A DNA stretch of 64,000 bases, taken from the sequence record MN709127.1. One strand, 5' to 3'. This document shows positions 53,329 through 53,745 of the stretch, piece by piece. Both the position numbers and the translations under genes were made by a program. The notes below the pieces were generated by a model. It was given only the letters and a program-made list of their open reading frames with translations. It searched no databases and was not told where the DNA came from. This stretch comes from Escherichia phage Ec_Makalu_002. Numbering within the stretch: position 1 is the first letter of the stretch; every line of letters begins with the position of its first letter.

Positions 53329-53745
53329 TTAGAGAGATTCGGTAAAGGTACGCGCGATCACGTCACGCTGCTGGTCTGGAGTCAGACTATTGAAGCGCAC
53401 TGCATAACCAGAAACGCGAATTGTAAGCTGCGGGTACTTCTCAGGATGTTCAACCGCGTCAAGCAACATTTCTCGTAACAATACGTTAACATTTAGGTGT
53501 TGGCCTCCTTCGACAACCGGAGCACCATTATCTACAACAACCGGACGGAAGCTAGTTGTGTGCAGTTCCAGCGAATCGACGTCTTCTGCGGTGATCACAT
53601 GATCTTCTGCGAAAGTTTTACTAACAATTACTTTAGCGCCGATCAGTGCTTTCGGTTCGGATACCAGAATCATAGGCGCGAAGTGTCCACCGATAATAGT
53701 ACCTTTATGCTCACCTTTCATGATTTGAATTGCTTTAAATTCCAT
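53329..53745 (-). CDS. grcA: autonomous glycyl radical cofactor GrcA/YfiD-like protein
   Basis: C-terminal [56 protein letters not shown] is near-identical to E. coli GrcA as recalled. Confidence 0.8.

Follow-up and report, generated by a model that had tools for sequence, protein, structure and literature searches.

We analysed a 64,000-nucleotide stretch of Escherichia phage Ec_Makalu_002 (sequence record MN709127.1; this whole stretch is referred to as the window, and positions are window positions unless another record is named). On its minus strand, an ATG-to-stop open reading frame at 53329..53745 encodes a GrcA-like protein of 138 amino acids plus the stop, with the start ATG at 53745 and the stop codon at 53329. 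We refer to this gene as vs.6, the name that it carries in phage Phi1. Alignments divide its coding sequence into a phage-type N-terminal region (codons 1–76; 53518..53745, minus strand) and a C-terminal glycyl-radical domain (codons 77–138; 53332..53517, minus strand), which, as judged from sequence and a fold match, duplicates residues 698–759 of PflB, the pyruvate formate-lyase (PFL) of E. coli. Within this domain, sequence inspection and a 34-sequence alignment located an RVSGYAV motif (residues 110–116; 53398..53418, minus strand), and alignment to GrcA and PflB placed the codon of the predicted radical glycine, G113, at 53407..53409 (minus strand).

The gene is framed by recognizable expression signals. 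A strong Shine–Dalgarno sequence, AAGAGGTG (53750..53757, minus strand), lies 4 nt 5' of the ATG, and a terminator-like hairpin with a 10-bp stem that includes five G–C pairs, followed by the T-rich tail TTTCTTTATA (about 53286..53320, minus strand), lies 9 nt past the stop codon. A preliminary description of this DNA, made from the sequence alone, had credited the gene with its own terminator, and annotation of relatives bears this out: in Ec_Makalu_003 the positions equivalent to those of the window vs.6 carry annotations of a terminator and of a ribosome-binding site, and in other relatives a terminator is likewise annotated at the equivalent place 3' of the gene. The late-promoter sequence TATAAATA occurs at two sites in the whole window, a count below chance, and at none near vs.6, and sigma-70-like matches near vs.6 were not convincingly above the expectation from shuffled sequence.

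Two co-directional genes abut vs.6 on its upstream side (53756..54366, minus strand). They were delimited by open reading frame calls and correspond to ORF100 and vs.8 of Phi1, so that a vs.8 homologue, a 41-amino-acid reading frame and vs.6 form a co-directional run that ends with vs.6 ahead of the terminator. Directly downstream of vs.6 is an nrdC.11-like nucleotidyltransferase gene of 243 amino acids (52544–53275, minus strand; Pfam RlaP). In the T4 reference record (RefSeq), vs.6 is found at 63557–63919, annotated ‘autonomous glycyl radical cofactor GrcA’, and is flanked by regB/vs.3–5 and by vs.7/vs.8, all on one strand. Comparison with T4 and Phi1 showed that the window keeps the order regB...vs.6...vs.8 and the strand, with the nrdC.11-like gene interposed on the regB side. 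T4 nrdC.11 encodes 336 amino acids (1011 nt) and is located approximately 7 kb away, in the nrdC–mobD region; the nrdC.11-like gene beside vs.6 is a local rearrangement relative to T4.

The 1 kb around vs.6 is 96–98% identical to the genomes of the Krischviruses Ec_Makalu_003, Phi1, GEC-3S and RB49, which are T4-type phages of E. coli and Shigella, and the window is itself of Krischvirus origin (RB49/Phi1/GEC-3S type). Besides the vs.6 of Phi1, the gene is annotated as ‘autonomous glycyl radical cofactor’ in Ec_Makalu_003, W115, kaaroe and Skers. As a separate observation in this neighbourhood, a perfect 9-bp, G+C-rich hairpin without a T-run, ACGGGGAGA ... TCTCCCCGT (54384–54414, minus strand), sits between an M15-peptidase endolysin-like gene (54429–54818) and the vs.8 homologue, where it may act as a transcript-stabilising or processing element.

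A probable Krischvirus ortholog of T4 vs.6

To place the 138-residue protein, we compared it with profile collections, bacterial GrcA and phage genomes. Pfam Gly_radical matched residues 78–119 (E 1.6e-16) and was the sole Pfam match. The best NCBIfam match was TIGR04365, the GrcA equivalog, at 135.2 bits, which is below the curated cut-off of 170 bits; E. coli GrcA scores 234, and the T4 protein, Y06I, which has validated activity (see below), also falls under the cut-off at 151.1. The TIGR04365 cut-off therefore divides bacterial GrcA from the phage clade and is no test of function. The InterPro entry that PMC8683613 gives for this family is IPR011140. The phrog_1209 profile was matched over its full length (positions 1–121 of 121, residues 3–138 of the protein; E 2.7e-51).

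BLASTP against E. coli K-12 GrcA (from NC_000913) gave 69 identical residues out of 104 (E 1e-43), so that identity to the bacterial protein on a real alignment is not low. The likeness is concentrated in the last 62 residues, which are identical to GrcA at 56 positions (90%), to PflB at 50 (81%) and to T4 vs.6 at 54. RVSGYAVRF occupies residues 110–118, G113 aligns with the radical glycine of both GrcA and PflB, RVSGYAV is invariant across the 34-sequence alignment and every catalytic-loop residue is conserved. These results agree with the preliminary description in regarding the product as a stand-alone glycyl-radical protein of GrcA/YfiD type with a host-like C terminus, an RVSGYAVRF motif and a differing N terminus.

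The full-length alignment of the window protein to T4 vs.6 gave 58% identity (E 5e-47). Both are small stand-alone proteins of PHROG 1209 with a KAxQIxxGxHKGTI plus VSKTF N terminus and an RVSGYAV domain, and their genes share neighbourhood and strand. The T4 protein is shorter, at 120 amino acids against 138, with approximately 17 extra residues in the Krischvirus N-terminal half, and the T4 gene differs in that the nrdC.11-like gene lies directly downstream only of the window copy. The E. coli protein GrcA (YfiD; structure 6OWR) shares the C-terminal 62 residues, the aligned radical glycine and the predicted C-terminal fold. Residual N-terminal homology may also be present (Q7, I8, A37, I40, V41, K43, E47, D48 and R67 are invariant in three sequences), but the N-terminal 76 residues of the window protein form a longer segment than in E. 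coli GrcA and are only 24–31% identical to bacterial GrcAs. The match to the PflB C terminus (698–759; structures 2PFL and 1H16) includes REMLLDA, which is a PflB rather than a GrcA feature. Unlike PflB, the window protein has no catalytic barrel of ~700 residues, and thus it is no enzyme by itself.

Because identity to T4 vs.6 extends over the full length, including the phage-type N terminus, and because the neighbourhood and strand are shared and the gene is named vs.6 in Phi1, we regard 53329..53745 as very probably the Krischvirus ortholog of T4 vs.6 (Y06I), a phage-lineage GrcA/YfiD spare-part protein for which, by analogy, we propose a function in PFL repair.

Using tblastn, we found homologues in 1580 of 50,697 phage records (~3%), spanning T4-like, T5-like and jumbo phages of Escherichia, Salmonella, Klebsiella, Yersinia, Aeromonas and Vibrio; many of them carry the annotation GrcA or ‘pyruvate formate-lyase’. 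Nolan et al. 2006 (PMC1524935) had already listed vs.6, with its match to Gly_radical, as conserved in six out of six T4-like genomes. Given the naming of the gene in relatives, the biochemistry of T4 Y06I and these 1580 records, it is an already known gene of a known kind, and the novelty that the preliminary description had implied does not hold. The biochemistry of one phage GrcA, T4 Y06I, has been on record since 2001, and the discovery value of the window copy is accordingly small.

Proposed role in the repair of pyruvate formate-lyase

As summarised in PMC8683613, Wagner et al. 2001 (pmid 11444864) described E. coli YfiD and T4 Y06I as spare-part proteins of ~14 kDa: PFL activase puts a glycyl radical on each of them, and the activity of oxygen-cleaved PFL is restored. 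The suggestion that a phage copy could rescue oxygen-damaged host PFL is thus in keeping, by analogy, with the activity reported for the T4 ortholog. A corresponding mechanism for the window protein would begin when oxygen meets radical-carrying host PflB, which is established to result in cleavage at G734 (PMC8683613). The 138-residue phage protein would then bind the cleaved PflB, as expected from YfiD and Y06I, and its C-terminal 62 residues, for which both sequence and fold match those of PflB 698–759, would supply a fresh glycine loop with G113. Host PflA and S-adenosylmethionine would provide the RVSGYAV loop with a fresh glycyl radical, and production of acetyl-CoA and formate would resume. 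T4 Y06I and E. coli YfiD have both been seen to undergo this last step in vitro, from which we infer it for the Krischvirus protein. The gain for the phage may be that fermentative energy metabolism is kept up in microaerobic infected cells. To our knowledge, no phage phenotype of the spare-part gene has been described, and a literature search for ‘autonomous glycyl radical cofactor’ in phages returned no title on a phage GrcA phenotype.

The N-terminal half and partner recognition

The N-terminal half is where the phage and bacterial proteins part. In the window protein it carries the motif KAIQIxxGxHKGTI ... VSKTFAED, of which T4 shares KAxQIxxGxHKGTI ... VSKTF and which bacterial GrcAs lack; alignments showed that their N terminus is of another type, MIxGIQITKA...NSFWLLD. 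Over the N-terminal 76 residues, identity is 89–95% to Krischvirus relatives and 33–45% to other phage copies, well above the values for bacterial GrcA given earlier, and a Krischvirus-specific extra segment is present near residues 18–36. HMMER and BLAST alignments to GrcA begin at residue 37, and a few positions in the N-terminal half are conserved.

An AlphaFold model was built from the 34-sequence alignment (mean pLDDT 77.9). The top Foldseek matches of its C-terminal 60 residues were YfiD (6OWR; E 1.8e-6) and the PFL C terminus. In the N-terminal half the model predicts beta strands at residues 4–8, 17–20, 38–41 and 66–69 (pLDDT about 80–86). A fold search with this half returned insignificant KOW-like matches alone (probability 0.3 or less) and no significant structural neighbour. 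The N-terminal half is thus predicted to be partly ordered, whereas the N terminus of YfiD is reported to be disordered (PMC8683613).

This difference bears on function. In YfiD, catalysis does not depend on residues 1–60, whereas binding to cleaved PFL and efficient activation do (Andorfer et al. 2021, PMC8683613). The same study reports that cleaved PFL has to be present to license the activation of YfiD, free YfiD being a poor substrate of PflA. Since the corresponding half of the window protein has diverged and contains an extra segment, partner recognition could differ. One consequence could be that the protein acts on a host target or state other than oxygen-cleaved PflB, such as the PflB paralogue TdcE or full-length inactive PflB, and the diverged N-terminal region could indeed alter recognition in this way; the C-terminal module, however, is closest to GrcA and PflB, and we consider such a change of target quite improbable. 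A slightly less improbable, but still unlikely, idea is that the phage-type N-terminal half, which is maintained among T4-like phages and lengthened in Krischvirus, changes recognition or licensing of the spare part itself, for example by allowing a radical to be formed without prior docking on cleaved PflB, or to be formed by the phage NrdG; separately, and at the same low level of expectation, the C-terminal module might be repeatedly exchanged to match host PflB.

The poor activation of free YfiD by PflA also makes it conceivable, if only indirectly, that the phage protein is a decoy, titrating host PflA or blocking PflB to redirect metabolism without any repair. However, addition of the T4 ortholog brings back PFL activity in vitro, according to the account in PMC8683613, and a simple decoy would not need the catalytic-loop residues, all of which are conserved. 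We therefore judge a decoy role extremely unlikely, and retain PFL repair as the proposed function.

Relationship to the phage NrdD and NrdG proteins

The preliminary description had pointed out that the same window encodes the glycyl-radical enzyme NrdD and its activase NrdG, and both genes are indeed present: NrdD, the anaerobic ribonucleotide reductase, at 34206..36068 (minus strand; Pfam NRDD, 1.9e-175), and an NrdG-type radical-SAM activase at 32274..32783 (minus strand; Pfam Fer4_12, 1.8e-43, plus Radical_SAM; annotated nrdG in Phi1). It had further raised the possibility that the GrcA-like protein rescues NrdD. The vs.6 protein would then be a spare part for the phage NrdD, activated by the phage NrdG and replacing an oxygen-cleaved NrdD C terminus. 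Apart from the presence of both genes in the window, the window NrdD carries the pentapeptide RVSGY at residues 592–596, a role of vs.6 in nucleotide metabolism was speculated on in 2006 from the shared Gly_radical Pfam domain (PMC1524935), and spare parts for further glycyl radical enzymes have been called conceivable (PMC8683613).

Direct comparison argues otherwise. BLASTP of the vs.6 protein against the window NrdD found nothing significant (best E 0.92), with RVSGY alone in common, so that the C-terminal domain of vs.6 does not duplicate the NrdD C terminus; the C-terminal 62 residues instead have the identities to PflB and GrcA described above. The nrdD and nrdG genes are also ~17–21 kb from vs.6, and T4 Y06I, as described in PMC8683613, works with PFL and PFL activase. 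We therefore rejected the NrdD spare-part reading, which we consider very unlikely; the link to NrdD is without sequence support past the five-residue motif. Repair of PFL remains our preferred reading, and vs.6 and nrdD/nrdG probably co-occur because both serve low-oxygen infection, rather than because their proteins work together.

Host-like protein sequence and the question of recent capture

The near-identity of the C-terminal residues to E. coli GrcA had led to the proposal that the gene was recently acquired from a host, and three observations could be taken to favour recent uptake of vs.6, or of its C-terminal half, from an enterobacterial host. The C-terminal module is 87–94% identical in protein sequence to bacterial GrcAs, which is above its 69% identity to the copies of JK32-type Krischviruses. 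The GC content of vs.6 is 46%, compared with 40.7 ± 2.2% in 42 other window genes (2.4 sd above). Such captures also occur in the family, as in T4, whose vs.6 has a 3' half nearly identical to E. coli grcA (see below).

The nucleotide sequence of the 62-codon host-like segment points the other way. It is 73.7% identical to E. coli grcA, 72.0% to pflB and 72.6% to T4 vs.6, and only 43–45% of third positions agree in these three comparisons (43.5% for grcA), which is below the 61% at which the E. coli paralogues grcA and pflB agree with each other; among 56 conserved degenerate codons, 24 are the same codon as in E. coli grcA. A blastn search of 5,426 complete E. coli genomes returned pflB as the best match, at 74.6% over 185 nt (44% of vs.6). 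We also scanned bacteria with one genome per species and compared the best 80 loci, for which the maximum was 76.9% nucleotide identity and 52% of third positions despite 55–58 identical amino acids out of 62. Synonymous sites are thus saturated relative to grcA, pflB, T4 vs.6 and the best 80 bacterial loci, and the near-identity of the protein to that of the host does not indicate recent transfer.

The N-terminal part leads to the same result. Nearly all of the best 80 bacterial proteins align only from residue 27–45 onward; four of them align from residue 3–5, at 51–54% identity, and none of these is close. The heptapeptide TPDQQRD is common to the window protein and a Krischvirus-type metagenome relative (P0003), whose N-terminal half is nearly identical to that of the window vs.6, whereas all other aligned homologues, including those of bacteria, have E in place of that D. 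The phage-specific type of N terminus is common with T4, as is the regB...vs.6...vs.8 neighbourhood, and both argue against a recent arrival.

Base composition does not alter this result. The GC3 of vs.6 is 41.7%, inside the phage range (37.7 ± 4.4% in window genes; z = 0.9), so that the GC surplus comes from the first two codon positions and hence from amino-acid composition. The codons used in vs.6 are among the least phage-like in the window, a weak signal that is not decisive. The GC and codon comparison with other phage genes thus gives a raised total GC, an ordinary GC3 and a codon choice at the least phage-like end, which together do not support recent capture.

From the E. coli codon comparison, the search of 5,426 genomes, the best 80 bacterial loci and GC3, we rejected recent host capture of the window copy; for E. 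coli and the species sampled, sequence comparison largely rules it out, and we consider it exceedingly improbable. The sequence data indicate instead that vs.6 is a long-resident gene of T4-type phages, in which closeness to host GrcA and PflB at the protein level is best put down to purifying selection that keeps the protein compatible with PflB and PflA of the host. The C-terminal module could still have an older host ancestry. For this gene, therefore, near-identity to a host protein and recent transfer have to be kept apart, which, with the NrdD link, is the second respect in which the earlier interpretation needs correction.

With regard to base composition elsewhere in the window, the reading frame at 45070–45849 (minus strand) has the highest GC of the 42 window genes sampled, 50% against the mean of 40.7%, with an ordinary GC3 of 36%. 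Its counterpart in Phi1 is annotated as gene 38, tail fiber/host specificity.

Exchange of the C-terminal module in the vs.6 family

Other members of the family have a different history in their C-terminal half. In T4, the last 185 nt of vs.6 (record positions 63557–63741) are identical at 181 of 185 positions to the last 185 nt of E. coli K-12 grcA (98%, whereas the window copy is about 74–76% identical). On its 5' side the match begins abruptly at the codons for (I/V)EGGQHLN, and it runs to the stop codon; T4 vs.6 has a GC3 of 0.19 in its N-terminal half and 0.40 in its C-terminal half. The 3' half of T4 vs.6 looks like the product of a recent gene conversion by host grcA. A chimeric, host-like gene is thus a real phenomenon in the vs.6 family, and it is recent in T4-type phages but not in the window.

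A second kind of exchange was visible among the Krischviruses themselves. Between the window vs.6 and that of Shigella phage JK32, a Krischvirus, codons 1–60 are 97–100% identical at the nucleotide level, whereas from approximately codon 65 to the stop codon identity falls to 41–79%. In JK32, an HNH/NUMOD4 endonuclease gene lies immediately downstream of vs.6, at a place where the window has none, and every one of the nine phage records with a match to the JK32-type module also has the endonuclease gene. This association is consistent with co-conversion during homing, by which the JK32-type module and the HNH endonuclease gene may have spread together.

Judged by these sequence comparisons, phage vs.6 genes have a C-terminal radical module that acts like an interchangeable cassette. 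Its replacement appears to take two routes, conversion by the grcA of the host in T4 and, in the JK32 type, arrival together with a homing endonuclease. If such swaps recur and keep the module matched to the PflB of the current host, vs.6 would be a modular auxiliary gene that tracks its host, and not just a passive copy of GrcA. The cassette pattern could also help in studying how an auxiliary phage gene stays compatible with an enzyme of the host. Across phage records, 629 match the E. coli grcA segment at an identity of at least 95%, phages of Klebsiella, Enterobacter and Cronobacter are 80–88% identical to E. coli grcA, and the Krischviruses and T5-like phages fall into the class with 60–80% identity.
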